Virus record (IMG/VR): IMGVR_UViG_3300022543_000001
Span: 26,204 to 90,203 of that record
Source of the DNA: a virus
Lineage: Duplodnaviria > Caudoviricetes
Reading direction: 5' to 3' (one strand)
Length of the DNA: 64,000 bases
Shown: positions 24,494-42,100 of the stretch, in pieces
How the letters are laid out: each line of letters begins with the position of its first letter
How positions within the stretch are numbered: the first letter of the stretch is position 1
Program-made: the position numbers and the translations under genes
Notes under the pieces: model-generated
Databases searched by the model: none
What the model was told of the DNA's origin: nothing
The model's input: only the letters and a program-made list of their open reading frames with translations

Positions 24494-24549
24494 AATTTAT
24501 CTTTGTGTAAATCTATTAAAATTTTTTAAGTTTACTAAACCTTTAAAGT

Positions 24550-27500
24550 TTATAGTAAAAATGGAAGCCATGAACTGATGTCAATATAACCACTATTGTT
24601 ACCTATTGAACCACCTCTTTTTGCTTCTTGTTGTGTTCCATACATAGTGTTTGCCATATTTGGATCTGGTGCAGTACTTGTTTTACCTGACTTACCTTGT
24701 GAATTCATAACTCTTGACATACATGCTGAATGATCTGTTGCATTAGGATTGTTTTGTTTACACCAATCCATTGCTTCTTGCATTGTCATTGCACTACTAG
24801 CACCTTGTCCATTAACTGTTTTAGGAGTTGGATTAAAAGCCATTCTTCCACCTACAGTAGGATCAACTTTATAGTTAGGATACATCTGATTTAATGCATC
24901 TGTTTTCCACTTATTAGTAATACCTTGAGTATAATAGTTTCTAACATTGTTTCTCATTGCTAATTTAGCATTGTCAAACTGTTGATTAGCAACTGTATTT
25001 TGATCATATAATCTTTGATTAGTTGCTTGATTCAACATACTACTTTGATTCCTAATGTCATTTGCTTTTAACTCAAATTGATTAGCAATATTAACATTAG
25101 CATTATTATACTTAGACAATATATCAGCAGCATTTTTAGCAGCAGCACCCTGAACACTTGATGATCTAGCAGACAAAGCTTGAGGTCCAGCAAACTGTGC
25201 CATAGCATTTGTTTGAATAGCTGCTTGTTCAGCATTAGCACCAAGTTCTCTTGTAGGATCTTGAAATACTGGTCTTGGTACACCCAATGCTACTGGAGGT
25301 GCAGCTGGCATTCTTTTCTTAAGACCCATTAGATCTCCAAATGCTCCTGTAGTTTTGATAGTATCTTGTAACCACATTCCAGGAGGTTGTCCTGGTACAG
25401 GGATAGTTGAATCTTCTTGACAAGGAGGACAATTACCATTTGCATCAGCAGTCATCTCTATTACAGTACCATCAGCTTTTTGACATGGACATGGTTTACC
25501 TTTTGGTGGTTCACATGTACAGTTACCTTGAGCATCTTTTGGTTTATAATTAGGTTTATTTGGATCATCACATTGACATGGTTCTTCTCCAGGTACATCC
25601 TCAAATTTTAAATCATGTACAGCTTGAATTTCTCCTTGTGTTGTGTTTGTATAGTATGCATCAATAGGAGAAATGTTTGTTACATTCATTCCTTTCTCAT
25701 CACTGAAACCAACTTGTTTACCATAAGGATTAAATCCGGAGAAACTTGTAATACCTAATAATGCTGTTTGTGTATCTTCATCATAGTTACCTGGATTTGC
25801 ATCAAGGTCTTTCATTAATTTATCAGCTGCAATAAACCCAGCCTGTTGTATATAGGCTTCTTCAGCATAAGCATCATCAGCTGAACCTGATAAGTATTTA
25901 TTACCAGCTTTATCAGTTTTTACTTTTCTTTCCATAGGTAAACCCATGTCTTTTGAAAGCTTATCTAATGAAGTAAAACCAGATGACTCAACTTTTTTAT
26001 ACATCTCTGTGATCTCTTGATCAGTTGCATTTGGATTTGTTTGTTTTATAATACTCTTAAATCCTAATTCATCTCCATCAATTTTACCATTTTTATTTTT
26101 ATCTGGTTGATCTTCCATTGGTCTTAATTCACCATTTCCATCTTTGTACAAATGAGGACCAAAACCTTTTACTCCAAGTTTATCACCGTAAGTTGTAGTT
26201 TTCAAGTTACGTTCTTGCATTCTAAGATACTTAGATACAATCTCGTCATCAGTTAAGTCGTTAGGATCTTTTTTAAATTTCTTTTGATAAGTTTCAGAAT
26301 ATGAATCTCTTTTTCCTTTGTATGCTTCTTGATCAGCTAATGTTCCTCTTACTTGTTTTGCAAATGCAGCTTTAGCTTTAGGATCATTAAATGTTTGTTG
26401 CATTGCTTGAAATGTAGCAGCAGCAACTTGGTTACCATTCCATTTATCTAAATCAGTTCCTGTATATTTATCAAAACCTGTAGCAGAAACTTTTTGCTCT
26501 ACTCTTCTACCATCAGGTTGTATAACATAAATTTTTTCTTTACCTCTACCTCCTTGAACATAAGCTCTTCTTAATGCTTGTTTAAACTCTTCATCTGTTT
26601 TATAATCAGCACGTTTAACTTCAACACCATCTCTAGCTTTAACCATACGTGTTATAGGACCAGATCCAGGAATTCTTTTTGGTCTACCTTGATAGTTTTG
26701 AGACATACCTGCACCCATTGACATACCATACTCTGCTTCTGGTATATCATAGAAAGGCATATCATAACCACCCATAGACATTCCATAGGCAGCCATTGGT
26801 GGTGCCATTTGTTCTTCTTCCATAGGAGGTTGTTGACCCATTCCTTGTTCTTGTCCACCTTGACCTTGAGACATAACTTCTTGAATAAGACCTACAGCCT
26901 CTTCTTGAGCTACACCCATTTGAGTAAATATTTGCACTATAGCTTCAGGTGGAAGACCATTCTGTAATAAACTCATAACAACTTCAGCAGGTTCAGCACC
27001 TCTTTGTAGAGCACCTTGAACTTCTTGCATAATCTGCATCATCTCATCTTGACCACCACCTTGTTGTTGACCTTGAGCTTGTTGTTCCATCATTGCCATT
27101 TCTTCAGGAGATGGTTGTTGCATACCTTCTGCAGCTCTTCTTAATCTTCTCATACCACCACCATACATCATCATCATCTCTTGTTGAGACATAGGTTGTT
27201 CTTGAGCTTGTGCAACTGGTTGACCTTGATTCATTTCTTGAGCTTGCATCATTTGATTTTGCTCATTCTCTGATTCCATTGTCTGATCTGAATTCTCCTG
27301 TTGTTTCATTTGTTTCTTCAACTGGTCATTCAATACACTAATCTCTTTAGATGGTAAGATCTGTTCTTCTGTAAGACCTCTAGCTTCCATACAAGGTTTA
27401 GCAACAGCAGGAATTCCTTGAGGAAAACCTTTCATTGATTCTTGTGCCAAAGCTAAACATCCTAACTTAATGACATATTTTTTCATCATTAATTCAGCAG

Positions 27501-27975
27501 ACTTTCTTTCTATAGCATCAGTATCAGGATCTTCTAAGATTTTTCTGTACTTCTGGATATCATATTGTTTAGCAAGTTCTGCAGGAGTAAAAGATTTACC
27601 TTTACCTGTTTTACCAAACATAGAAAGTACATTAGGATCTTTTATCAGCATACCTCTAGTATCACTGAAAATAAAAGTATCTTCTGGTAAGTTTAATGGA
27701 ACACCGCCTGCACTATGTCTTGGACCTTTAATGATTTGTTGTTCCGGCATTCCATCACCATTGATGTCTCCGTATACAGTTTCACCACCCTCTGCTTCCA
27801 AGTTAGCCTCATCTCTAGGTACTGCAGTAATGTATTTACTTGCAATAAGTTTTGGTTTTCCTATATAAGCATTATAATCTGCTCCACCCATTGCTGGAAC
27901 ATCATTTACTAAAGCACCTTGGACTTGGTATCCAGTTTTTGCTTGAGGTACTTTTTTAATTCTAACTTTTATCAT
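24550..27975 (-). CDS. Internal virion cargo protein (1141 aa) with EAEGGE/GPRHSAGG domain, Gln/Met-rich linker, EF-hand-like loop and Cys-rich modules
   Basis: ORF track; low-complexity, modular composition; C-terminal region (DPTRELGANAEQ...NANVNIANQFE) resembles crAss-like cargo proteins by recollection. Confidence 0.6.
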   Translation of the reverse strand: MIKVRIKKVPQAKTGYQVQGALVNDVPAMGGADYNAYIGKPKLIASKYITAVPRDEANLEAEGGETVYGDINGDGMPEQQIIKGPRHSAGGVPLNLPEDTFIFSDTRGMLIKDPNVLSMFGKTGKGKSFTPAELAKQYDIQKYRKILEDPDTDAIERKSAELMMKKYVIKLGCLALAQESMKGFPQGIPAVAKPCMEARGLTEEQILPSKEISVLNDQLKKQMKQQENSDQTMESENEQNQMMQAQEMNQGQPVAQAQEQPMSQQEMMMMYGGGMRRLRRAAEGMQQPSPEEMAMMEQQAQGQQQGGGQDEMMQIMQEVQGALQRGAEPAEVVMSLLQNGLPPEAIVQIFTQMGVAQEEAVGLIQEVMSQGQGGQEQGMGQQPPMEEEQMAPPMAAYGMSMGGYDMPFYDIPEAEYGMSMGAGMSQNYQGRPKRIPGSGPITRMVKARDGVEVKRADYKTDEEFKQALRRAYVQGGRGKEKIYVIQPDGRRVEQKVSATGFDKYTGTDLDKWNGNQVAAATFQAMQQTFNDPKAKAAFAKQVRGTLADQEAYKGKRDSYSETYQKKFKKDPNDLTDDEIVSKYLRMQERNLKTTTYGDKLGVKGFGPHLYKDGNGELRPMEDQPDKNKNGKIDGDELGFKSIIKQTNPNATDQEITEMYKKVESSGFTSLDKLSKDMGLPMERKVKTDKAGNKYLSGSADDAYAEEAYIQQAGFIAADKLMKDLDANPGNYDEDTQTALLGITSFSGFNPYGKQVGFSDEKGMNVTNISPIDAYYTNTTQGEIQAVHDLKFEDVPGEEPCQCDDPNKPNYKPKDAQGNCTCEPPKGKPCPCQKADGTVIEMTADANGNCPPCQEDSTIPVPGQPPGMWLQDTIKTTGAFGDLMGLKKRMPAAPPVALGVPRPVFQDPTRELGANAEQAAIQTNAMAQFAGPQALSARSSSVQGAAAKNAADILSKYNNANVNIANQFELKANDIRNQSSMLNQATNQRLYDQNTVANQQFDNAKLAMRNNVRNYYTQGITNKWKTDALNQMYPNYKVDPTVGGRMAFNPTPKTVNGQGASSAMTMQEAMDWCKQNNPNATDHSACMSRVMNSQGKSGKTSTAPDPNMANTMYGTQQEAKRGGSIGNNSGYIDISSWLPFLL

Positions 27976-27983
27976 CGGGTTCT

Positions 27984-30900
27984 TTATAAATATTCAACTT
28001 GTCCTCCTGCTGCTAAGAATTGTTCTAATTCTTCTGGAGTCATATATACTTCTTCGTCATCCATGTAGCCACCATTTTGCATGTAACCACCATATTGAGC
28101 AGCATTACTATTTGCATAATTACCAAATGTTGCTCTACTGTTTCTGTCGGATCCCATTTCATCATATCTAAACATACCTGTTTTAGAACCAATATCTCCC
28201 CAGTCACCTTTATCAGTTTGAGTAGATGCCATTACATTAGCCATTGGATCAAACTTGTCTAACAACATGTTATTTTCAATAGGTGCATTCTGTGCTCTTT
28301 CATACATACCTAATCCAAAATTAGCTGCACTATTAAAAGCATTAACTCCTGCTTCACCATCAAAGTTTCTAGCTGTTTTACGTTGTCTTTCTACACCAAC
28401 ATATTGATTTTGATTAGGTGCAGGTGTGGGTTCAGGTGCTTGTGGAATAATTTGTTGACCTTGACTACCTACTGTATTACCAGTATTTGCAGTTTCAGCA
28501 TAAGAACCTGTTCCAGTCTGAGTTATAAAACTAAATGGGTTTTGTTGTTGAGGCATTTTATTTGGTGCAGGAGCTCCAAACAAATCATTTTCAAATTGAG
28601 ATTGTTGAGAATATGGATTATAGCCTGATTGATTTTGACCAGCACCCATACCAAAGCCAGTACCAACTTCAAAAGCACCACCCATTCTTTTAAAAGAAGG
28701 ATTTTTAACTCTATCCACTAAACTTTTTAATGTACCATATGCATTCTTTACATTATCAACTGCATCTCTAGCACCATAATAAGCTTGATCAGTCTTGTAT
28801 CTAGCACCACGTCCTTGTTCATATCTCTCTGCTTGTCTTAGATTTCTTTGACCACGTCTAGTTTGTTCATCCCATTCTTGATCACTAAATTGAAATCTTT
28901 CTTTTGCTGCATCTTCTAAACGATCTCTTCTACTTGTCTTTTCAGGTTTCTCATTATCCTTGTAATTAACCATAGACCAACCATCTTGAAGTGCATCTTT
29001 TACCATTCTTTTAGTAATACGACCAGGATTAGATTTGTTTCCTGAACCTCTACGGTTATCTAACATACCTTCAAGTTGTGCTAAATCACCCATAGGAACT
29101 CCAGTACCATCACCATCAACTTGATAGATATCAATCCATTTTTTTCTACCACCTAGCAAACCTTTCTTGGTTGTATAACTAGCAACAGGTTTATCTGGAA
29201 TAAGACCATTGTAAGATCTACCATCATTTAAATAATATGGAGTACCCTTTTGTTTAACCCAAGATCCAGCTGATCCAACTATTGGATTCCATGGTAATAA
29301 GTTACGTCCGTAACTACCTGGATTTGGAACTTGTGTAAAGTTATAATTCATTTTTGCTATAGGAATACACATTTTATATTTATCATTCCAAACAGTACCA
29401 GGACCACACTGAGTCTTTTTTGGTTGCAAGCTTGCACTTGAGTTTAATACACAAGCACTTCCATTCCAGGTATATCCTGCTGGACACTTCTCAGTACTTC
29501 CTTCTTCTTCTTCCTCTTGACCTTCTCCACTGTAAGCAGCATAATCATTCAAAGTCTTATTATAGAAGTCAAGATAGTTATCATAATCTTCTTTTCTAGA
29601 AGGGTCACTTTTCCATGATTCAAAATCTCCTTCTGGATTTGCAGCTTGCCAATCTTCTTTTTCTCCTTCTGCCCACTGATCAAATGGTAATTCATCAGCC
29701 ACTGTTCTATGTTCTCCAGCTTGATTTAAAATATTTATACCATCTCTAGCTTGTTCTAGATCATATGGTTCATAGTATTCACTCTCATCACCACCATATA
29801 TAAATCTAACAAGTGGTTCTTTAGCATCCATATCCACAAATCCTCCAAATGCTGCAGTAAAATCTGTATTCATTTGTTCTTCTTCAGCAAGATTTTCTTT
29901 ATAACCATCTTGCATCAGCATGTTTAAAATCTTTGGATTGTTCTGAGCATTCTTGTAAATATCTTTTGATATAGCTTTATTAGAATTATTTTTTAATGTA
30001 CTAATAAAAGAAGATTTCATGTTAGCAACATCATTTGTCAAAGTATCTTTTCTATTACCTTGACCTAAAGTTGCATCTCCACCTTCAGCATACATAGAAA
30101 CCATTCTATCAATAAATCTATTTTTAGAAACACCACCTTTTGCAAAGTCATTTGGCAAAGCTACATTTTGTGTATTTGGATTTACAATATTTGAATCTTG
30201 ATATCTATAGTAATTATAATCACTTGGAGTTTGTCCTTTTAAGAACTTCATACTATCAGGTGTCTGTAATGTATTTGGATCAACAGTAACTCCTTCTCTA
30301 ATAGGAGTAGGATCTAAAACTCTACTTGGTCCTACATCAGTACCACATGTACATTTACCAAGAGCATTTTTAGGTTGGAAGTTTGGTGCATTAGGATCCT
30401 CACATTGACAAGGATGTGCTAATGCATCATAAGTATTATAACCAACATAACCTAAACCACCACCAATAAGTGTAGTCTTTAAACCTAATCTATACTTATA
30501 GTTAATAGCATTCTTAATATCAGATGCTGTTTGTGAATAAGGAATAGCAGCAGGATCTTGAATGTTTGGTCCAAGAGCCATGTTTGCATAACCATATACA
30601 GGTTGATCAATATTTTCAATTCCTTTTGCACCAGTTCTGAATAATTGGTTTAATCCAGTTGTTCCATATGTTTCTAAACCTCTACCAATTTTTCCTCTAT
30701 TACTTAAATCATTCCATGTAGTTGGAGGTAAACCTGTTATATCAGTTCTTCTTACACCATTTATATCATCAAAATAATTAGGAAATGGAGTACGATTCAT
30801 ATCTTTTAAAGTTATATCACCCAACATTCCTGTTAATGAAGAACCAATTGGTCTTGTAACTTTTGATTTTGTTTGAACACCTGTTGTTAATGGATTACCT

Positions 30901-32318
30901 AATGGATCAAATACATTTAAACCACCAGTTTCAGGATTTTGATTATAATAGAATCTGTTTTTAAATGTAACCTCTTTAGCTTTTGGAGGAGTTGTACCAA
31001 AAGGTAAACTTTGATTAGGACCAAAAGTATATTTTAATTCAAAAAATTTATTTCCTGACTCATCTTCCCCACCAATAACTTTTGTTTGTGGAGGATATAC
31101 ACCACTAACTAAGCCCTCATGTCTAGACATAATGCTGTTAAGCTCTTCTAATGTAAAAGGTTCATTATTACCGTACTGTAATTTACTAATTAAATCTTTA
31201 ACATCTGCTTGATCTAATACTAACCTATCAGCTTGTAAGCTACCATCAGTTCCACCAGCATATGTTCCGTTCTGACTAAACACTCCTGTTTTTGGAGTAG
31301 CTCCATTAATAACATTCCAAAGTTCAGTTCTATTCTGTGTAAATGGAGTAGCTAATTTTGGAGCAAACTTTCCTCCTACATAAGGTAACCTAGTCATTGC
31401 ATCACCAATACCAGTAAATACAGGTAAAGCTTTACGTACTGTAGATATATTAGATAAAGGATTAGCTTTGTTAGCATATCCAACAGTTGGTATGTACTCA
31501 GCTAATTTTTGAAGTGCTGATTTAACAGGAGGTGTTTCTAATCCTAATCGTGCTTGTGGTAAATATTCTTGTGGTTGATAAGAATCAGATGAACTTCTGT
31601 AGTCACCCAGATAAGATGCTAGATCTGGAAATGCTTGCATCTCTTGTGTACCTGGTGTCATAGCAATTAAATCTTCCATAGAGAAAGGTTTTTCTTCAGG
31701 TGTTCTTCCTGGAGTACCATACTGACTCATTACAGCTTGTTCTTTACTTGGTTCTTGATTAGGATTCATATCTTCAAATTCAGGATACTCTCCACCATCA
31801 TCAAAGTAACCACCATATTTAAAAGCTTCTTCCTCTTCATCCTGTGTCATTTCCAAAGCAGAATTCTGATTCATCTGTGCATCTTCTTCATCATATAGAC
31901 CACCATCAGATATTGCTAATTCTTCTTGTTCTGCATCTGAAGCTGCTCTTTCATTTTCTTCATCTGCTTGTTGTTGTGGATCAACACCTGGTTCTGGTTG
32001 AGCTTTATCTTTAACTACTTCAGGATCTACATAACCTTCTTCAGCAAGTTTAGACATAGCAGATTTAATAAGCATCACAGATGTATTCTCATCTAATGCA
32101 TACTCATTAATAAGTTGATTATATAAAATATCAGGTGTAGCATCATTTTTTAATGATATATAAACCTGATCATATATTTGATTTAGTTTAGCTGGATCCA
32201 TACTTGGAGCTGCTACTTCCATACCCATTGCTGCTTTTTTTAAAAACTCAGCAGTTTTGTTATAGTACCCTGGAGTTTCACCTGGAAGTGCTTTTCTAAT
32301 CCTTACTTGTTTCTTCAT
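27984..32318 (-). CDS. Internal virion cargo protein (1444 aa), modular and low-complexity, many xxxGG motifs
   Basis: ORF track; acidic/Gln-rich linkers, Cys mini-domains, shared terminal motifs with neighbouring genes. Confidence 0.6.
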   Translation of the reverse strand: MKKQVRIRKALPGETPGYYNKTAEFLKKAAMGMEVAAPSMDPAKLNQIYDQVYISLKNDATPDILYNQLINEYALDENTSVMLIKSAMSKLAEEGYVDPEVVKDKAQPEPGVDPQQQADEENERAASDAEQEELAISDGGLYDEEDAQMNQNSALEMTQDEEEEAFKYGGYFDDGGEYPEFEDMNPNQEPSKEQAVMSQYGTPGRTPEEKPFSMEDLIAMTPGTQEMQAFPDLASYLGDYRSSSDSYQPQEYLPQARLGLETPPVKSALQKLAEYIPTVGYANKANPLSNISTVRKALPVFTGIGDAMTRLPYVGGKFAPKLATPFTQNRTELWNVINGATPKTGVFSQNGTYAGGTDGSLQADRLVLDQADVKDLISKLQYGNNEPFTLEELNSIMSRHEGLVSGVYPPQTKVIGGEDESGNKFFELKYTFGPNQSLPFGTTPPKAKEVTFKNRFYYNQNPETGGLNVFDPLGNPLTTGVQTKSKVTRPIGSSLTGMLGDITLKDMNRTPFPNYFDDINGVRRTDITGLPPTTWNDLSNRGKIGRGLETYGTTGLNQLFRTGAKGIENIDQPVYGYANMALGPNIQDPAAIPYSQTASDIKNAINYKYRLGLKTTLIGGGLGYVGYNTYDALAHPCQCEDPNAPNFQPKNALGKCTCGTDVGPSRVLDPTPIREGVTVDPNTLQTPDSMKFLKGQTPSDYNYYRYQDSNIVNPNTQNVALPNDFAKGGVSKNRFIDRMVSMYAEGGDATLGQGNRKDTLTNDVANMKSSFISTLKNNSNKAISKDIYKNAQNNPKILNMLMQDGYKENLAEEEQMNTDFTAAFGGFVDMDAKEPLVRFIYGGDESEYYEPYDLEQARDGINILNQAGEHRTVADELPFDQWAEGEKEDWQAANPEGDFESWKSDPSRKEDYDNYLDFYNKTLNDYAAYSGEGQEEEEEGSTEKCPAGYTWNGSACVLNSSASLQPKKTQCGPGTVWNDKYKMCIPIAKMNYNFTQVPNPGSYGRNLLPWNPIVGSAGSWVKQKGTPYYLNDGRSYNGLIPDKPVASYTTKKGLLGGRKKWIDIYQVDGDGTGVPMGDLAQLEGMLDNRRGSGNKSNPGRITKRMVKDALQDGWSMVNYKDNEKPEKTSRRDRLEDAAKERFQFSDQEWDEQTRRGQRNLRQAERYEQGRGARYKTDQAYYGARDAVDNVKNAYGTLKSLVDRVKNPSFKRMGGAFEVGTGFGMGAGQNQSGYNPYSQQSQFENDLFGAPAPNKMPQQQNPFSFITQTGTGSYAETANTGNTVGSQGQQIIPQAPEPTPAPNQNQYVGVERQRKTARNFDGEAGVNAFNSAANFGLGMYERAQNAPIENNMLLDKFDPMANVMASTQTDKGDWGDIGSKTGMFRYDEMGSDRNSRATFGNYANSNAAQYGGYMQNGGYMDDEEVYMTPEELEQFLAAGGQVEYL

Positions 32319-32335
32319 AACATGTTATATATATA

Positions 32336-32346
32336 AATATACTAAA
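32336..32346 (-). promoter_or_regulatory. Recurrent intergenic motif TTTAGTATATT (putative late promoter)
   Basis: One of five near-identical copies located in intergenic gaps upstream of genes. Confidence 0.5.
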
Positions 32347-32375
32347 TTTTAATTTAATCAATACACTTTAAAAGT

Positions 32376-35300
32376 TTACACATCTTCAATAATGTAACCA
32401 TCTTCAATGTACTTATCTATTTCTTTTTTAGATAAATTAGTTACCACACCACCTTTTTTATAATCTCCTCTAAACCCTGTATTCCATCTGTTCATTAAAG
32501 ACTTTTTATATGCTTCCATATCTAAATAATCTTCAGCAGACATATTCTTCAAATCATTAAATTTAAAAGTGGGATCAATAATTCCAATTTGATTACCTTT
32601 ACCACCAGCCCATATACGCATATCTAATCCAGAACCTTCAATACCCTTTCTACCTGGATCAGCAAAATAAACCTTATTAGGATCTAAATTATGACGTACT
32701 CTTCCATCTTGATTATATATACGGTTTTTACCAAGTATATACTGCTCAAATAAATCTTGCCAGTTTCCTGAATCAAGATCCATATCTTGTTTTACTTTAA
32801 ACTGATAACGACCATATTGTTGTGGATTAGGAGTACCTGCAAAATATAAACCATCCATTCTAGACATATCTGGTAAACCTGCTCTATAACCATATTGATC
32901 CATAGGAACACTTGTAGCTTGATAAGCAGCTAAAGAAAGAGGATCTTCCATATTAACACCTTTAGCAATCATGTTTTCATATTCACTTAAAGGATTACCA
33001 CTTGCTATTTCATACATATTATATTGACCATGGTTTCCATAATTATCTAATCTATTCCCTATAGGATGAAATTGTCCAGATACTTGTCTAAAACCTGTTC
33101 TATCATAGTCAATTGCACTTTGCATAAATTTCTTCAAACTCTCATCTGACTTAGCAGCTTTTAACATATCTGCTCCCATAGTCTGAGGTCCTGCATAACC
33201 TAATTCTTTTAAACCCTGAATAATATTTCTTCTTTCTGTAAAACCAGGTAAAGTATTTATAATAGGAGTGACTATTTTTGTTGAAGGTTTGATAGTACCA
33301 CTTAAACTTTCTGCAATAACTGGTAAACCAGTTCTAGCTTTAACTAAACCACCATTATCATAACCAAGTAATGGATAACTACCTGTTCCAAGATAACCTT
33401 TGGGATTTTGTTCTAGTATAGAAAACTCTCCTAAACCTAATCTTTTACCTACTTTATTTATAGGATTGGTTATAGATTCATAAATTGGTTTTGCTCCAGT
33501 AATATTTGGATTACCTAGAACAAGACCAGAACCAGGTGTGGCTGCATTGTATACACCTGTAAATCTAGAAGGTATATTACCAACTGCTACAGTACCAGGA
33601 GTACGTAATGAGTTTAATGTTTGTAATGTACCTACAGCAGGTTTTATACCTTTTATAATAGGAGCTGCACCCAATGCTCCTTCAAATGCATTTAAAGCAG
33701 CAGTTCCGTAATTACCTTGTTGAAAATTATCATAGGCATTAGAAATATTTTCTGGAGTTTTTGCTACAAACCCTGCAGTAAACAAAGGACTATTAAATGC
33801 TTGTAATCCTTGTTTCAATCCTTGCTTTAATCCTGGTGCTGAACCTAATGCATTAAAGCCTTTCATGATACCTCTTTTTGTACCTATATCAAATAACTCA
33901 TCTCCTACAGCACTTAAAAATTCTCCTTTGTCATAACCTTTTCTTAAATTGGTTCCAATCTTAAAAGGATTTAAAGCTTGAAGCAAAGTATAATCTCTAA
34001 TTATAGCAAGAGGATTATCATTAGGCATAAGTCCTGCATTCTCATCACCAAATTTTTTTGCAATATCTTTTCTTGTTTCATAACTTTGTGCATTATTTCC
34101 CCACATTTCTTCACGAGGATTCATTGCAAAATATGCAGCATCAAATGGATTAGCTAATACATCTCTTATTTTAGAAGCTGTAGTGTTTTCATTAATACCA
34201 GTTCCTTGTTTTATTGTGTCAGGATTTAGTTCACGCATAAGCATAGCATCCACACTACTGTTTAATATATCATTGTAGGTTTCCTTTTTATTACCAGTTT
34301 TTTGTGTTAGTAATTTTTGCATTGCTTCATCAGGGTTCTCTTGAAATGATTTTAATATTTCAAGTTTACCTTGTTGTGTAGAACCTACTTTATCTAATGC
34401 TTGTTTAAGAACTTGTTTAGTAGCATCTGATCCAAAATTACCAATGTATGCTGCATAAGCATCATTAAAGTCTTTAGCTTTAGCTGTGTTTGCAGCTGCT
34501 AGTGCATTCTTTTGATTTAAAGTTTGGTTTAATGATGCATTGTTTTGTCTAACATTAGCCATAGCATCATCTTTTGCAAAAGTAAGTCCATCATACTGAC
34601 CTGCTTTTCCATACTTATCCATCCAATCTGAATAAGCTTTTTCACCTCTTTCAGTTTTTTGAGATTGATAATTAATAAAGTCTCCTAAGTTATTTGTACC
34701 ACTATGATATCTTTTCTCCCATGCAGCCATTGGATCATCAGATTCTAAAAATATTTTACGATCCTGATCAACCTTAGCTCTATCAGTTCCAGGTAGAGAA
34801 TCCATACTTGAAACAAGACTTGCATATGCATCATCTATTATTTTATTTGTAGGTTTTTCAAATGTAGACTTAAGTCCAGATTGTGTTCCTATTTTAGGAG
34901 AGAGTTCTTTTATAACTTTGTCTACGGGTTTACCTTGCTCAATAGCTTTTGTTAGTATACTTTTAGTTACTTCAGCTTCATAGTTAGCTTTAGCTGCTCC
35001 CATTAAATCTCCAAGTTGTTCTTTAACTTGTTTAGGATCTAAACCCCAGTAGTTTTTAAATTGATCTGCTTGAAAACCATTTGTAATAATTCTATCTTTA
35101 ACTATGTTTAAAGGATATAATTCAACAAAGCCATCTTTCTTATGGACTAGAAAATTTTTCTTAAGTTCCTCTAATGTTTCTGGTGAATACTTAGATTCAG
35201 ATTCCCTTACATAAGGTTCTATTTTATCTTGTTTCTTAGATTTAGCAAATGTATCTAGATATCTAGCACTGTCATCTGCAACCCATCTATTATGTTCTTC

Positions 35301-35615
35301 ATTTGTTTTACTACGTATATCATTTATGTCTTTAACTAAACTTATTTTTCTTGCTAAAGATTTAGCTTCAAAGTCTTCTTGTTCTTTTTTCATCTCTGCT
35401 TTAGAAGCAGCAATATATTCTGATTCAGGTAAACATTGTCCATTAAACTCATACATACCTGGAGGACATCCTTCACCTCTCATATAACCTGGCAATGATT
35501 CATTCCAATATGATGGTTGCTGTACTCCTTGTACTTCTACCATAGGGGTATTATCTGATTTGACAATCTTACCTTTTTTAGCTTGTGGAATACTTGTTAT
35601 TCTGTACTTTGCCAT
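32376..35615 (-). CDS. Internal virion cargo protein (1079 aa), possible C-terminal ART-like module
   Basis: ORF track; shared N- and C-terminal motifs; Gly/Ala-rich hydrophobic middle segment; GLYFAG...QYGRY motif near the C-terminus. Confidence 0.55.
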   Translation of the reverse strand: MAKYRITSIPQAKKGKIVKSDNTPMVEVQGVQQPSYWNESLPGYMRGEGCPPGMYEFNGQCLPESEYIAASKAEMKKEQEDFEAKSLARKISLVKDINDIRSKTNEEHNRWVADDSARYLDTFAKSKKQDKIEPYVRESESKYSPETLEELKKNFLVHKKDGFVELYPLNIVKDRIITNGFQADQFKNYWGLDPKQVKEQLGDLMGAAKANYEAEVTKSILTKAIEQGKPVDKVIKELSPKIGTQSGLKSTFEKPTNKIIDDAYASLVSSMDSLPGTDRAKVDQDRKIFLESDDPMAAWEKRYHSGTNNLGDFINYQSQKTERGEKAYSDWMDKYGKAGQYDGLTFAKDDAMANVRQNNASLNQTLNQKNALAAANTAKAKDFNDAYAAYIGNFGSDATKQVLKQALDKVGSTQQGKLEILKSFQENPDEAMQKLLTQKTGNKKETYNDILNSSVDAMLMRELNPDTIKQGTGINENTTASKIRDVLANPFDAAYFAMNPREEMWGNNAQSYETRKDIAKKFGDENAGLMPNDNPLAIIRDYTLLQALNPFKIGTNLRKGYDKGEFLSAVGDELFDIGTKRGIMKGFNALGSAPGLKQGLKQGLQAFNSPLFTAGFVAKTPENISNAYDNFQQGNYGTAALNAFEGALGAAPIIKGIKPAVGTLQTLNSLRTPGTVAVGNIPSRFTGVYNAATPGSGLVLGNPNITGAKPIYESITNPINKVGKRLGLGEFSILEQNPKGYLGTGSYPLLGYDNGGLVKARTGLPVIAESLSGTIKPSTKIVTPIINTLPGFTERRNIIQGLKELGYAGPQTMGADMLKAAKSDESLKKFMQSAIDYDRTGFRQVSGQFHPIGNRLDNYGNHGQYNMYEIASGNPLSEYENMIAKGVNMEDPLSLAAYQATSVPMDQYGYRAGLPDMSRMDGLYFAGTPNPQQYGRYQFKVKQDMDLDSGNWQDLFEQYILGKNRIYNQDGRVRHNLDPNKVYFADPGRKGIEGSGLDMRIWAGGKGNQIGIIDPTFKFNDLKNMSAEDYLDMEAYKKSLMNRWNTGFRGDYKKGGVVTNLSKKEIDKYIEDGYIIEDV

Positions 35616-35617
35616 TA

Positions 35618-38600
35618 CTATATTTTTTCAAACGTATAACCTAATTTTTGTAACTTCTTCATAGTAGCTTCATCTATCTCATCTCCAAGTTCATAATCAA
35701 TAGAACCTCCTTGTTGAGCATATTGCATATCTTCTTGAGAATCATTTTTTGCAATATAGTTAAATAGATCTTTTAATCCTTGATCATCTTTTACAACTTT
35801 AAAAAGATTGTATAATGCATTATCATAGTTAGGATTATTTCTATCTAAAGCACCACTCTTCTCTGCCTCAGATCTCCAAGCCTTAATATCTTCATCTGTA
35901 ATAACCTGTGTTGGTTGAAGACCTTTGCTTTGTCTTACTTCAAATATTAAAGACTGTATGTTATCTTGACTAGGATCTGTAAGATAATCGTAATCCTCAC
36001 GAGCTTGTCTTTTTTCATCACCTTTTAAATGACCCCAACCTTCTTCAAAAGATTTTAAATTAGGTTGAATAATAATTTGTTCAGCAGGTAATATTTTATC
36101 ACCATATTTATCCCAAAGTCTAGTTCTTTCCTCATGTGCAATAGTTGCATTTAATTCTTTTGGATCGGACTTTAAACTTTCTTTTAGTAATATTTTTGAA
36201 GCTTCACCATCATCATTATAAACCAATTCTCCCATTACACTTGGATCATCAGCAATTATATCTGTGTATTCATATGGTACAGATTGATTTAACTCTTCCA
36301 ATAGTGGAGATTCAGGATTATATGCAGGTAAAAATTGTTTTAATGTACGTTCATATGATTTATTACCTATTTGATCAAAAGGTAATTGTCTATTGCTATA
36401 CCAGTTGCTAAAATAAGAATTTGCATTTATAGGTACTATATTAGGAATATCCTCTACCATAGGTGAATCAGACTCAATTGGTGCAGGTCCTCCATTTCTT
36501 GCTTGGTTTAAAGCACCTCCATATTTTCTTTCAGCATCTATTAACTTTTGTTTATTACCAGTAGTTAAATATTCTTCAAATGATTTTACTATTTTCTTTT
36601 CAGCTTCGTTTTGTTGTTCTTGATTTTTTGAAGCAGCTTTCAAATATGACATTATCAAAGCATCATCAAGATCTTTATATAACTCATGCTGTTTTATTTT
36701 ATTTACATCACTCTCATCAAAAACTGTTATCTCTCTTGGATCAAAAGCACCTGTAAAACCTTTATCTCTTAATGCATCAGCAGCTTGCATTTGACTTGTT
36801 CTAATCAAATCTTCATTACCTGTTGGATTAAAACTAGTTCTTAAAGCTTGTTCATATTCATATGCATTTTGATAATTTCTTGGATCTACACGATTTATTA
36901 AACCTACTTTTTTTATAAAATCATTTGTCAATGGTGCATTATAATTTATAAAGTTTTCAGGATTATTAAATAAAGCTTCTGAAACATATGGTGTAAATGT
37001 CTTAGTTTGAGGCACTAAACCATAACCACCTAAACTACTCACTCTAGCGGCAGATGTAGCAAAGTCAGGATGTGGTGTTAAATACACACCACCTTCTTGA
37101 TTACCCAAACCACTACCTCTAAAAGATCTATCAAAATTTTTAAATGATGTTTTATGTCCAGTTAAACCACCAGTTATTATTGGTTGATTACCATCAAACC
37201 TGATTGGATTGTATCCACTATACTGAGTTAAGAAATCACTCTCTAACATAGGAACTGTTTCCAATAGTTTTTTTGTTTGCTGTAAATCTAACTTAGGCAA
37301 TTCAAACTGAGCACCTGGTATAGCAGCTGGTAGATTAATCTGATTTGATAAACCTTTTAAATAATTATCAGCTACATAGTTTAAAGCAGGTAGATTTTTA
37401 CTTACAGATCCTAAACTTCTAAGTGATTTTATTAAATTAGAATTTACTGCTACACCTAATTCAGGCCCAACTACTTTAGCAACACCACCTAAATTATATC
37501 TTCTAGTAAGTTTATAATTTGGAATTCTTATTTCACCTGTATTACTTCCTGGAATAAGTTCTAAATAAGCTTTATCTGTTAAACCTCTACCTTGTAAATC
37601 TGCATTCAGTCTACTAATCATTTCTTCAGCAGCCTTTGGATTCCATTGTCTTACTGAACGAAATCCTTGTGGTACTCCTTCAATACCATCAAATAATTTA
37701 CTGTGTTCAGCTGTAAAATTTAAAGGGATATGATTTTCAAATTTCATGTCCCAATCTTTTTTATTTGCCATATTTAGTAAAAGATTGTATGAATCTAAAC
37801 TTAAACTATATGGTTCTAATATAGAAGGGTTAGGTAGAGGAAAAGCATCATTAGCTAATTTCATTGCCCTACCTGCTTCTAAAGGACTAGTCATCTTAGT
37901 TGCAAAATGAAAAACATTATCCTCTGTTTTATTATTAGGATAAACAGATAAATAACCACTATCACTAGTTATTGTAAAAGGAAGTTTTAATTGTTTTACA
38001 TCAAAATCAATAGGTAATTTTTTTAAATCTACTATACCACGTTCTATAGGTAATATAGTCATAGCTCCACTAGGAGGTGTTATAAGAGTTCTTGATGCAG
38101 GTCTTGCTCCTGCTTTAACAATTTTACCTAAGTTAGCTTTAGTAAGTTTTGGTACAGATATATCTTCTACTATAAAACCACCTTTAGCATACTCTTGTAT
38201 TTCTTCAGGAGTAAGTTCTGTTTCTATGAATGCTGGTGAAACATTTTTATAATTCTCTGCAAAATACATTGCATCTTCAGGATTATCAAATCTCATTGCT
38301 TCTGCAGATTCAGGACTATAATCTCCTAACATAAGTTGACCATTAACATCTTGAATCTGTGGTACAGCATAGTTATCCATACTAGCCATGTAATGAGTAC
38401 CTGTATTACCGTCTTCAAATTGATATGGTTGATCTGGTGCAACTATCATCCTTTGAGCTGCAGGATTACCATGCATATTAGCATAAGCTAATCTAGCTTT
38501 CATCATAGTATTATTAGCAGCATCAATATCTTCTTGAGATATAATACCACCTTCTTGTGCATGTACTGTTCCTTGACCACCACACTTATGACATGTAGTA

Positions 38601-39154
38601 ACATCATCACCACCATCAGCTGCATCCCATTTCCAACCACACTTCTTACAAGTTACCTTCTTAGTAAGTAAAGCACCACCTTCTTTTTTTTTATTTTGGA
38701 AATTATCTGGAGTTTCTAAAGTAGGGTCGTTGTCTTCGTAATAGTTACCTGCTATTTCTTCTCCTGGTTGAATGTTCTTAAGAGCTCTTAAATATCTTTT
38801 GTTACCTTGAATTATAGAACCAGCATTGAATGCATCATCAGAATGATTGTAATATGTCCCTATGATAGGAGTCTCTTTACTTTTTAGGTATGTTTCACCA
38901 TTCTTTTGGAAAGATGATTTAATATGTGAAAGACCAATTATCTCTCCAGCTCTAATTGGTTCATCAGCAAATAAACCTTTACCTTGTATGTTAGATTTTT
39001 GTACACTAACTTTCTTGTAAGGTTTCTCATTTAAACCACCGTTACTCATCAAAGGGTTTCCACTTGGATCTACCAACATGTCTCTTCTTTTAACAGGTGC
39101 TTTAGCACTACCAAGATTTTTGAGTGAATCAATAAGAACTTTTTTATTATACAT
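35618..39154 (-). CDS. Polyvalent cargo protein (1178 aa): SET domain, CxxC Zn finger, two unknown domains, ART-PolyVal-like domain, degenerate zincin
   Basis: GKGLFADEPIRAGEII...YYNHSDD...RALKNIQPGEEIAGNYY (SET); CKKC...CHKC; GHKTSFKNFD...GSGLG...GGVYLT...LRDKGFTG...EITVFD (ART-like); IAHEERT. Confidence 0.75.
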   Translation of the reverse strand: MYNKKVLIDSLKNLGSAKAPVKRRDMLVDPSGNPLMSNGGLNEKPYKKVSVQKSNIQGKGLFADEPIRAGEIIGLSHIKSSFQKNGETYLKSKETPIIGTYYNHSDDAFNAGSIIQGNKRYLRALKNIQPGEEIAGNYYEDNDPTLETPDNFQNKKKEGGALLTKKVTCKKCGWKWDAADGGDDVTTCHKCGGQGTVHAQEGGIISQEDIDAANNTMMKARLAYANMHGNPAAQRMIVAPDQPYQFEDGNTGTHYMASMDNYAVPQIQDVNGQLMLGDYSPESAEAMRFDNPEDAMYFAENYKNVSPAFIETELTPEEIQEYAKGGFIVEDISVPKLTKANLGKIVKAGARPASRTLITPPSGAMTILPIERGIVDLKKLPIDFDVKQLKLPFTITSDSGYLSVYPNNKTEDNVFHFATKMTSPLEAGRAMKLANDAFPLPNPSILEPYSLSLDSYNLLLNMANKKDWDMKFENHIPLNFTAEHSKLFDGIEGVPQGFRSVRQWNPKAAEEMISRLNADLQGRGLTDKAYLELIPGSNTGEIRIPNYKLTRRYNLGGVAKVVGPELGVAVNSNLIKSLRSLGSVSKNLPALNYVADNYLKGLSNQINLPAAIPGAQFELPKLDLQQTKKLLETVPMLESDFLTQYSGYNPIRFDGNQPIITGGLTGHKTSFKNFDRSFRGSGLGNQEGGVYLTPHPDFATSAARVSSLGGYGLVPQTKTFTPYVSEALFNNPENFINYNAPLTNDFIKKVGLINRVDPRNYQNAYEYEQALRTSFNPTGNEDLIRTSQMQAADALRDKGFTGAFDPREITVFDESDVNKIKQHELYKDLDDALIMSYLKAASKNQEQQNEAEKKIVKSFEEYLTTGNKQKLIDAERKYGGALNQARNGGPAPIESDSPMVEDIPNIVPINANSYFSNWYSNRQLPFDQIGNKSYERTLKQFLPAYNPESPLLEELNQSVPYEYTDIIADDPSVMGELVYNDDGEASKILLKESLKSDPKELNATIAHEERTRLWDKYGDKILPAEQIIIQPNLKSFEEGWGHLKGDEKRQAREDYDYLTDPSQDNIQSLIFEVRQSKGLQPTQVITDEDIKAWRSEAEKSGALDRNNPNYDNALYNLFKVVKDDQGLKDLFNYIAKNDSQEDMQYAQQGGSIDYELGDEIDEATMKKLQKLGYTFEKI

Positions 39155-42100
39155 TACCTAGGAGAAAATTGATTTTTACTATTAGACATTTTAAAAATTA
39201 TATTGACATCATCACCTTGATGTTTTTTCAAATTGATAAAATTCAAATAATGTCTAAACTTCTTTCTTTGCATTTGTGGTTTACTATAATCCAAGTTATT
39301 TGGGTTTAATATTCTAGTAAATCCATCTGGCCCAGTTATCCATGTATTCTCTGAAGAATAAGATCCTTGAAGAACTGTTGTTCCTGGAACTACCGGTCCT
39401 GTTGGTGGATAGTTTGATCCTATAGGAAACTCTGCTCTTTGTTTTGTCACATCCCAGAATTGGTTAAACCTATACTTGTTCTCTTCTTTAGAGAAAAGTA
39501 TATCATACGATGATAGGTTTGCATTTAGTTTTGGATACTGTAATGATTCATTAACATTGTTTTTAGGATAGATGTTAAGGTTAAGGTATCCGGAAACTTG
39601 CTCTGTATTATATACTACAGCTCTATCAAAGTTATAATCTAGTACATGATGTTGATCAACACAACTATCACCACGTCTTCTGTATGCCTCTAGTATATAT
39701 TCAATAGACCTAGTTGTCATTACAGATTGACCAGTTACAACAGGGAATTCAATTTCATAACCATACTGTGTACCATAATAATTACAATAGCCATCACATA
39801 TGTAATTATGTTTCCATAGAGTATTCTTTTTACTACTGATAAAAATATCTTTTGTAGGAATCATTAAATCTGGATGCCATTCATGGAATGATATAAAGAA
39901 TTGATTCTTAGGGTCATAGCTTATTGTCCATGATGCATCATCAAATAAATAAGGATCACCTAAATTAAATCTTAAATTTTGTTGACCGTCTACTATAAAA
40001 TCATCACCTGTACCATCTGGATTAAGATCTCTATACTCTACTCTTCCTTTGAATTGAGGTTTTAGCTGATAATCTTTTTTAGTAAAATATAAGATAGTAC
40101 TTGAACTATCATAAGTAGATTGACAACCAATACCAGCAACAGGATTATCTTGCCATGGATAGTCAGGAAAATCATCTGTTAATTTATAAGGCATATACAA
40201 TACAAACCACCATTTCATTCCAGATTGAGAAATTTCCTGCAGTCCTTGACCATAAGAAAAAATTCTGCCCTGATTCTGAGACATGTAGAATAACCCTACA
40301 GGAGTAGAAATTACTGATAGTCTATTCTGAGAAGAACCATATTCATATGCATTATCTGCATTAGTTACAGATTGCTGTGGTTGACTAAATAAAAGTCCAT
40401 CACCAATAGTAAGCTTAGTACCTAAATCAGTTTCTAATGTATCAGTACCTTGGAACATCAATGGGCTTTCATTTTTGAATGTAATGAATATACCACTTTT
40501 GTTTACTGATTTAACACCTGATATCTGACCTGTAAATTCTTTATAGTTATTTACTAAGTAAACAAACCAACTATCTTTAATTGCTTCCATTTGTTGAGGC
40601 AATGAGTAGATGATTCTATCTGGATAATATGTATAACATAACTTAGCTACATTAGGATCATAGTATCTACTTTGCACACTTCCAGCAGAAAAATATTGGT
40701 TATAAAGTTTTGATACACTTAATGAGTAATCATAGATATACTCACTAAGCATTCCCATAACATTAGGATTCATATTAAACATTGCTCTGTAATCAGTATA
40801 TCTATACGGATCATAGTGTTTACCTCCTTCTATTGGACTTTGTTTTCTAAAGTCAACAATAACTTCAGACTCTACAAAAAAGTCTCTAATACCTGAATTA
40901 GCTAAATAAAAATATGCTTCCTTTACAGACCATAATCCTCTATATCTATCACCTAATAATCCACTTGGTTCTGATACGTCAGTTGCATAATTATATCTTC
41001 TAGTAGCATTTACATAATAATCAAGATTGTAAAAAGAACCTGGATATGCACCAGTACCTGGTGTAGCTGGTGAAGAAAAGTTAAATACTTCTGATAAAAA
41101 ACCAACATCATATCTGATACTATTTACTTTAAACCTTGTTAAAGGAATCATACTGTGTAAATAGTAGTTATACTCAAAACCATCTGGTTGACCATATAAC
41201 CAATCATAGAAAAACATCATATTATTTTTCTCAGTGTACCTGTTTATATAAGTATCACCACCAAATAATATAGGTGTTCTACTAATAACTTTAAAGTTAT
41301 AGAAAACATTATCAATTGGACATGTCCAACTTGGTTGAGCTATAGTATAATTTTTTAATTTTTGCTCACATGGTGTAATTGTAATTTCATTTTCACTACC
41401 AATTTGACCATACTGATTTCTAACTCTACCTTTTAATCCTCCATAATGACTAGCAATTGGTAAACTAAAAGGTTTTGTTTTTGAATCCTCCTCAAAATTA
41501 GGAAGGTTATTATTTATAAATGCAGAGTTAGTACTGTTTTGAACAATAGTTCCTAATGTAACTAATGACTTATCTGTTATACCTGATGTAATTAAATTTG
41601 GACCAATAGTTACACCGTTAGGATATACTCCGTTAAAGTAAGGACCTGATTTAGTTCTTACTACAACAGCATCAGATCTTTTTAAGTTGTTTATATTGTA
41701 ACTAATAAATGTCCCTGTGTTAGTTTGATACTTAGGAACCTCTTGTACATTGTCTCTAATATAAAAACTATCTTCTATTCTAAATCTACTTAATGCTGTA
41801 GTAGGTAAACTTGTCATGTTACCATAAAAACCATGACTTACTTGTTGTAATGCATATTGTTCGTATTGAACAAAAGCATAAAATGTTCTTAATACTAAGT
41901 CAGCACCCTCTGCAAAATAAAATGATATAGCATTTAATGCACCTAAAATTCTTGAAGCAGGATCTAAATAAGCAAACTTAGGTAATTCAAGACTACCAGA
42001 AACAGCCATTGGTGATACACCAGCATTATTAGCTGCACCATTAACTGTTGACACAAAAAGACTTTCTGCATTAGCAGCAGCAGTATTATCATAACCAGCA

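Follow-up and report, generated by a model that had tools for sequence, protein, structure and literature searches.

Four consecutive genes for virion cargo proteins (g1178, g1079, g1444 and g1141) of an uncultured crAss-like phage carry short recurrent modules at the termini that face each other across the gene boundaries. These genes lie in a stretch of 64,000 nucleotides (nt), hereafter the window, which covers positions 26,204 to 90,203 of the IMG/VR record IMGVR_UViG_3300022543_000001. At each of the three boundaries, the upstream protein ends in an acidic C-terminal module (C-module) and the downstream protein begins with a basic N-terminal module (N-module). These modules are real: their placement is conserved by junction type (A, B or C), N-modules are confined to N-termini, selection is seen on the proteins themselves, and single-chain orthologues are devoid of them. 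As the best single explanation, which we hold tentatively and slightly short of probable, we propose that the modules clip consecutive cargo polypeptides together head-to-tail. The genes and their end-modules, all on the minus strand and defined by translation in the case of the genes, are as follows.

35618 to 39154, minus strand: g1178, first cargo protein, 1178 amino acids (aa), with an N-terminus of the 'MYNKK' type and no N-module.
35621 to 35698, minus strand: C-module type A, last 26 residues of g1178, net charge -3, found by pattern match.
32376 to 35615, minus strand: g1079, second cargo protein, with both modules.
35571 to 35615, minus strand: N-module type A, first 15 residues of g1079, net charge +4, profile hidden Markov model (HMM) score of 14.2 bits.
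32379 to 32456, minus strand: C-module type B, last 26 residues of g1079, HMM score of 27.1 bits.
27984 to 32318, minus strand: g1444, third cargo protein, with both modules.
32280 to 32318, minus strand: N-module type B, first 13 residues of g1444, net charge +5, HMM score of 15.7 bits.
27987 to 28067, minus strand: C-module type C, last 27 residues of g1444, net charge -8, HMM score of 34.1 bits and alignment.
24550 to 27975, minus strand: g1141, fourth cargo protein, with an N-module and no canonical C-module.
27919 to 27975, minus strand: N-module type C, first 19 residues of g1141, HMM score of 19.4 bits, net charge +5 over the first 15 residues.

The core of the C-module follows the pattern [ET]-[ILM]-x-x-[LYF]-x-x-x-G-[YGF]-x-[FIV]-E-x-[ILV]-stop, usually with GG and a short strand before it, while the N-module consists of a basic strand and then P..A..G. 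Profile HMMs for both were built from sequences of the clade; the general C-module HMM misses the divergent type A at the end of g1178, which a simple pattern matches. An initial annotation, made from the letters of the window alone, had reported the C-terminal module in the 1178-, 1079- and 1444-aa proteins and the N-terminal module in the 1079-, 1444- and 1141-aa proteins. Translation reproduced all of the termini it quoted, and the modules were recovered by HMM or pattern matches (14.2 to 19.4 bits for the N-modules). The acidic and basic character that it gave to the two modules also agrees with computed net charges, which are opposite (-2 to -8 for C-modules, +4 to +5 for N-modules). The coordinates it gave for the series, 27930 to 38227, fall within the series and cover only part of it, as the four genes span 24550 to 39154. 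Reversed six-frame open reading frames (ORFs) of the window gave no match of 8 bits or more to either module HMM, and in the whole 90-kb record both modules are confined to the four-gene series.

The same arrangement was found in relatives of this virus. About 80 related loci were fetched from IMG/VR and other assemblies, and a census was taken of the 306 unique adjacent-gene junctions in these contigs; six junctions mis-typed by regular expressions were re-typed by eye. A gene ending in a C-module was always followed by a gene starting with an N-module, with no exceptions in 122 unique junctions. Pairing was strictly by type (17 junctions A to A, 49 B to B and 56 C to C), and no cross-type pair was observed. 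All but one of the 168 matches of the N-module HMM were N-terminal, the remaining one being a tandem duplicate at residue 15, and the HMM search detected no true internal copy in 560,000 residues. N-module B accompanies every upstream protein with one or more C-modules and is missing in L027/L037 and L031/L032, where the upstream proteins have no C-module at all. Thus, the order given by the initial annotation, in which the first protein has only the C-module, the middle two have both and the last has only the N-module, holds across a large clade. The comparison with relatives bore out this pattern within the clade. In more distant phages, no such modules occur at the ends of the post-muzzle genes of PhicrAss001, Flavobacterium phage Fpv1 or Cellulophaga phage phi4:1.

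The modules are conserved as peptides. Module termini form islands of 62 to 85% identity in proteins whose bodies are ~25% identical or replaced. Among g1079 homologues, the last 26 to 27 residues are 70 to 85% identical, while the body is ~25% identical or unalignable; similarly, the type A C-module is conserved at junction A in relatives although the protein bodies diverge. At E ≤ 0.001, the g1141 family counts no fewer than 1,996 proteins, and in 120 homologues the first 19 residues are near-invariant, with overall identity down to 37-50%. The conserved N-terminal stretch of g1444 extends to about residue 35. In both modules, codon position 3 has roughly double the entropy of positions 1 and 2, indicating that selection acts on the module peptides. 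The variation of third codon positions also led us to reject conservation at the DNA level, as a recombination linker or RNA element, as the main cause.

These data also bear on the barely credible idea that the modules reflect a codon or RNA constraint in the start region, or a read-through or frameshift that joins the products. The starts are A-rich, stop and start lie 2 to 9 nt apart at junctions A and C, and in many relatives junction C has a spacer of 9 nt that keeps the frame. In the window, g1079 starts 2 nt after the stop of g1178, and g1141 starts 8 nt after the stop of g1444. Nevertheless, conservation is at the amino-acid level and extends over 15 to 35 residues, and relatives do not keep the run of A that precedes the g1178 stop. 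Translational fusion was rejected for the window since the reading frame changes across junctions A and C, and junction B, which is in frame, has three in-frame stops in its spacer, so that read-through, including the stop of g1079, would meet four.

32319 to 32375, no strand assigned: spacer at junction B, 57 nt, AT-rich, in frame with both genes.

The length and sequence of this spacer are kept across the clade (~20 distinct relatives). A similar spacer, of 56 nt (24494-24549), lies 3' of g1141 and opens with the same ACTTTAAAG-type motif as that between g1079 and g1444. Both are possibly phage promoters or terminators within the cargo operon.

Relatives in which neighbouring parts form one chain are devoid of the modules. 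In P0128-P0132 (2,002-2,171 aa), L016, L017 and L046, a short g1444-like part is joined to a g1141-like part. Similarity to g1141 sets in at its residue 20. Seven residues link this part to the ..YGG....GG stretch, which in g1444 comes ahead of the C-module and is kept here; these seven residues replace the 27-residue C-module and the 19-residue N-module. The modules of junction A are likewise absent from three-gene architectures and from the 2104-aa protein of L016, which is colinear with both g1178 and g1079.

Structure predictions are consistent with an interaction at the junction. AlphaFold2 was run on the same 21 genomes for the N-terminus alone and for a read-through chain. When the N-terminal 210 residues were modelled alone, residues 1-47 had a predicted local distance difference test score (pLDDT) below 50 (34 in the first block) and no secondary structure. 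The read-through chain was that of junction C of locus L056, with the natural in-frame stop read as Gly and a 4-residue link. Its model displays a strand (24-26), a helix (29-37), a strand (41-44) and the N-module strand (51-56) at pLDDT 74-82, while the 35 residues after the N-module strand remain disordered. The N-module strand itself has pLDDT 74-77, as compared to ~34 alone, suggesting that the leader becomes ordered only when the C-module is present. In this predicted arrangement, the N-module strand sits beside the strand-helix-strand C-module.

Based on these findings, we postulate that the products of the four genes after the muzzle gene would function as a single long cargo chain that is made in pieces. 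Where two pieces meet, an acidic strand-helix-strand mini-domain on the upstream protein would face a basic beta-strand with P..A..G on the downstream one. By beta-strand augmentation, and aided by the opposite charge, this N-terminal strand would extend the C-module sheet at its edge. The clipped gene products would then be loaded as a chain in the order of their genes and would later be extruded in this form through portal and tail, and split genes would be functionally equal to the single-chain forms of relatives. Physical binding, cognate specificity and any role in packaging or in the order of ejection are inferences within this proposal. A stronger version of this proposal, which we regard as doubtful, is that of a non-covalent cargo 'train', in which each module grips the strand of the next product, gene order is both chain order and ejection order, junctions pass the channel intact, and fused and split forms switch freely.

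Several observations weigh against head-to-tail docking. The first of them concerns the C-module, of which ~60 of 196 matches (~30%) are internal, with first-cargo proteins carrying 2-4 copies. A profile of the unit matched 904 clusters (50% identity) among 1.84 billion representatives, and the top 150 were all first-cargo proteins of the clade with 2-4 copies each. The internal unit of these proteins is conserved across the clade, and in the window it is found in g1178 together with the stretch that follows it.

38165 to 38233, minus strand: internal C-module of g1178, residues 308-330, HMM score of 36.5 bits.
38120 to 38164, minus strand: residues 331-345 of g1178, a stretch of the [IV]P.L..A..G type that follows the internal C-module.

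Residues 331-345 adjoin the internal C-module and are similar to the second half of the N-module, without the basic strand. Across the clade, the best-conserved internal C-module is also that of the first cargo protein, where it is followed in the same chain by [IV]P.L..AQ.G, which is the same half of the N-module without its basic strand. The occurrence of internal and repeated copies suggests that the C-module is an autonomous mini-domain and that no single domain is cleanly split at the junction. Moreover, C-modules outnumber N-modules, which indicates that they have some role in cis. The initial annotation was right about the three C-terminal positions and missed the extra copy inside g1178, and its split-domain interpretation is not supported in the sense of a clean division.

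The internal copies also raise the improbable alternative that the modules do not bind each other. Here, the cargo proteins would be domain mosaics joined by Y..GG, strand-helix-strand and P.A..G units, and gene boundaries, domain swaps and possibly maturation cleavage would fall in these recurring linkers. The end-modules would be remnants of linkers, kept by selection for folding, processing or cassette exchange. The contiguous occurrence of a C-module and [IV]P.L..AQ.G inside proteins fits this explanation, as do the internal P.A..G and Y..GG motifs of all four proteins, the exchange of bodies between constant ends, and the behaviour of junction A, which comes and goes in several clades as a replaced segment with no clean split. 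However, the basic strand of the N-module is never internal, so that the split form is not simply a cut linker, and third codon positions vary freely, contrary to what is expected of DNA-level recombination signals. Furthermore, no protease domain was detected by Pfam among the genes of the window, although this search was not exhaustive. Finally, new splits do not fall within such a unit.

These new splits, which break the g1444 homologues of L010 (1341 + 238 aa) and L022 (1315 + 249 aa) without modules at the break, also count against docking. As for the small pieces (L010 9274-9990; L022 9241-9990), they keep the type C C-module and begin with 'MYNKK' or 'MYSKK', like the first cargo protein. 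This start suggests, at the level of sequence, a fourth conserved type of head.

The second set of observations against docking concerns the N-module. N-module B also occurs, at 8 unique junctions, downstream of proteins that do not end in a C-module. A basic tail of another kind, 'K-L-x-K-F', closes four of these proteins, and the other four have neither ending; in one of the latter, L061, the type B C-module was made internal by a long C-terminal extension. Placement of modules at random relative to gene order, which the initial annotation had named as contrary to docking, was not observed for terminal C-modules, while N-module B is less strictly tied to an upstream C-module. Similar basic N-termini, with no C-module nearby, are also displayed by the cargo-1-type proteins of crAss001 (gp45), Fpv1 (gp31) and phi4:1 (gp040). 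Basic heads without a C-module in such distant phages suggest that the leader may be older than the C-module and may function independently of it.

Two further peculiarities were observed at the ends of these proteins. The alternative basic tail, GG...K-L-x-K-F-x-x-stop, takes the place of the C-module or, in L077, follows it. It is found on the protein before the g1444 homologue in L027, L031, L037, L040, L045, L046, L058 and L077, and may be a second kind of end-module. In L033 and L039 (4757-5104), which come from different samples, the g1079 homologue is frameshifted and its C-module lies in a 115-aa ORF of another frame, owing to a sequencing error, a pseudogene or a programmed shift. These two loci were rejected as cases of N-module B without an upstream C-module, since the C-module of the frameshifted gene is present in the next frame.

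The main rival explanation, possible if rather unlikely, is that the modules are independent terminal signals. The basic strand would then be a loading or ejection leader that needs no partner and that each cargo polypeptide translated on its own requires; it might target the procapsid, portal or tail channel or lead ejection, and would bind a common receptor or DNA rather than the neighbour. The C-module would be a general interaction or spacer mini-domain. Such a leader is expected to be strictly N-terminal and common to three paralogous proteins, as the N-module is, and its disorder when modelled alone is typical of leaders and short linear motifs. In fused forms a single leader would be enough, and its loss at the fusion point is thereby explained. 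The internal C-modules, the occurrence of N-module B without a terminal C-module upstream and the basic starts of distant cargo-1-type proteins are explained as well. Nonetheless, independent signals predict neither the invariable succession of terminal C-module and N-module (0 exceptions in 122) nor the joint loss of both at fusion points. The first cargo protein and the downstream 1060-, 2464- and 3315-aa proteins have no leader, and the read-through AlphaFold2 model orders the leader only with the C-module present.

The evidence for docking itself has limits. The modules are 2-60 nt apart on the DNA, and their co-occurrence and perfect pairing by type can be explained by synteny. A covariation test between C- and N-module variants over phylogenetically independent pairs gave a median p of 0.5-1, with too few contrasts to have power. 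Fused and split states were mapped on a FastTree tree of a downstream conserved protein; the fused junction C corresponds to a single clade, hence to one event, and junction A was gained or lost several times as part of a replaced segment. The read-through chain joins the modules by a 4-residue link, with modest overall confidence (mean pLDDT of 67 and predicted template modelling score (pTM) of 0.51), in a single model. Taken together, the interpretation of the initial annotation is partly supported: the colinear pattern, protein-level selection, fused orthologues and read-through model speak for it, while the absence of a clean split, the N-module B and basic leaders without a terminal C-module partner, and the sufficiency of synteny to explain pairing speak against it.

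The docking logic that we propose resembles two known systems. The docking domains of polyketide synthases and nonribosomal peptide synthetases (PKS/NRPS) are also short modules at the C-terminus of one chain and the N-terminus of the next, colinear with the genes, with several types, one per junction, and dispensable when the parts form one chain. In the cargo genes, modules sit at facing termini colinear with gene order (122 unique junctions) and are absent from single chains at junctions C and A. The likeness is one of arrangement, with no sequence relationship: the modules have no Pfam family and no PDB relative, and matched no family in Pfam, PHROGs, a PDB sequence search or an ESM Atlas look-up of the unit. 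In addition, cargo is virion protein rather than an enzyme line, and here the C-module is also internal and multi-copy. Meanwhile, in donor-strand complementation and exchange (chaperone-usher and type V pili), an N-terminal strand joins the sheet of the neighbour in a non-covalent head-to-tail chain, as would be the case here. Unlike the proposed docking, pilins complete an incomplete immunoglobulin (Ig) fold and polymerise one type of subunit; in the cargo proteins, the acceptor would be a ~25-residue strand-helix-strand unit with no Ig fold, and the series is an ordered one of four different giant proteins.

In phage T4, a capsid-targeting sequence, an N-terminal peptide of ~10 residues, is common to several packaged internal proteins; it attaches to the scaffolding core, and the prohead protease cuts it off. 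The N-module is similar in that it is an N-terminal peptide shared by several packaged proteins. It differs from the T4 leader in that no protease was found among the window genes by Pfam, the first protein is without leader, and the leader co-occurs with an upstream C-module. Furthermore, a T4-type leader would be borne by packaged proteins whatever their gene order, and the first cargo protein and the 1060-, 2464- and 3315-aa proteins do not bear it. A split intein was rejected since the modules measure 27 and 19 residues, as compared to Hint halves of ~100 residues or more in total, with no Cys, Ser or Thr either directly following the N-module or at the junction itself and no Pfam match to Hint or intein families. 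In agreement with the statement of the initial annotation that it knew of nothing of the kind in phages, literature searches found no description of such modules.

The genomic setting is that of crassvirus cargo genes. The record spans 90,203 nt (~75% complete, ~33% G+C), and the large genes of the window are all on the minus strand. Pfam families PF25731, PF24228, PF25702 and PF23898, along with a weak P22_portal match, reveal a crassvirus virion block in the order portal, major capsid, ring 1, ring 2, muzzle. The cargo series begins at the stop codon of the muzzle gene, which it directly follows.

39154 to 44694, minus strand: muzzle protein gene, 1846 aa, Pfam PF25731 crAss_MUZ at E 1.5e-27, PHROG 37948 virion structural protein.

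This is the same genomic place as that of the PhicrAss001 cargo genes gp45, gp46 and onward, directly after the muzzle (PMC10172136). In PhicrAss001, N-to-C extrusion has been proposed, and the order of ejection is probably set by cargo packing and mutual interactions (PMC10172136). The cargo proteins of that phage (C1, which is gp45, and gp46-gp50) differ from those described here in that they have neither module, and no docking element between cargo proteins is reported in PMC10172136. The four cargo proteins of the window match no PHROG family, and tblastn searches with g1079 and g1141 against 50,697 phage records returned no match; no cultured relative with proteomics was found.

A further likeness to PhicrAss001 lies in the domain that directly follows the N-module of g1141, which resembles the compact domain of C1.

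27361 to 27918, minus strand: N-terminal domain of g1141 (residues 20-205), conserved at ~90% column identity among family members.

Foldseek searches of BFVD linked this domain to crass-like cargo proteins (E ~1e-3, probability 0.97-0.99), and the ESM Atlas gave a score of 0.93 to the PF25725 cluster. In VIA-align, it was superposed on chain M of 7qog with Z 4.5 and a root-mean-square deviation of 4.6 over 92 of 126 residues at 20% identity, a score tied with those of unrelated rows. Alignment with the C1 domain by hhalign recovered a local motif only (E 0.11). The PF25725 HMM had no match at E up to 10 in the alignment of the g1141 domain, nor in the whole record, and Foldseek returned no PDB structure for the domain at E ≤ 0.001. 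Residues 20-205 of g1141 are thus possibly the compact domain of crassvirus cargo protein 1. In crAss001, the compact domain of C1 lies on the capsid side of the portal, and the chain that precedes it threads the channel (PMC10172136). The split that precedes g1141 is closely followed by this cargo-1-like domain, whose counterpart in crAss001 is found next to the portal. If this assignment is right, junction C stands just ahead of a portal-side domain, where the continuity of the chain would matter.

At its other end, g1141 closes with a tail that departs from the canonical C-module.

24553 to 24618, minus strand: C-terminal tail of g1141, a helix-less GG...GY.. variant with a hydrophobic end.

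This hydrophobic tail is conserved across the family. The cargo genes are followed 3' by genes for proteins of 1060, 2464 and 3315 aa, none of which carries either module. The usual architecture in relatives comprises the muzzle gene, 3-4 cargo genes and then a conserved gene whose product starts with 'MATYLQGV'. A GIY-YIG homing-endonuclease gene (~213 aa) is inserted just ahead of the latter in L014 (7203-7844), as well as in L040-L047, L050, L053, L054, L070, L073 and L074. The first six residues of its product are those of the 'MATYLQGV' gene, as if the start of the target had been copied.

The bodies of the cargo proteins displayed other recurring elements. A SET domain (lysine methyltransferase-type) heads g1178 (residues 58-138, 38741-38983, minus strand; Pfam E 5.7e-6, above cut-off), with faint matches also in the relatives L008 and L012; it is possibly an injected methyltransferase. 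It is followed by a zinc-ribbon-like CxxC...CxxC motif (residues 169-191, 38582-38650, minus strand), which in L046, L067 and L079 comes directly after the internal C-module. A Cys-rich C.C.DPN...C.C motif is found in g1444 (residues 637-658, 30345-30410) and in g1141 (residues 800-831, 25483-25578), as well as in their homologues; it has the look of a mini-module, of metal or disulfide type, that has passed between cargo paralogues. Lastly, g1141 has a Q/M/E-rich segment (YGG..RRL.RA..G.QQPS.EEM...) at residues 271-289 (27109-27165, minus strand). This segment, also seen in L010, L012, L014 and L015, recurs in g1141 homologues, with up to 3 tandem copies in L015, and is present in a g1444 homologue too (L010), which points to low-complexity repeats common to cargo paralogues.

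If head-to-tail docking is correct, these findings would provide a concrete mechanism for the ordered co-packaging and ejection of crAss-type protein cargo, in which megadaltons of protein pass a narrow tail. Docking would also account for the easy interchange of fused and split versions of giant genes, and the modules would represent a compact (~45-residue) natural heterodimerising tag pair in three flavours. Even without binding, the modules are useful annotation markers for a large, uncultured and clade-restricted family of cargo proteins.

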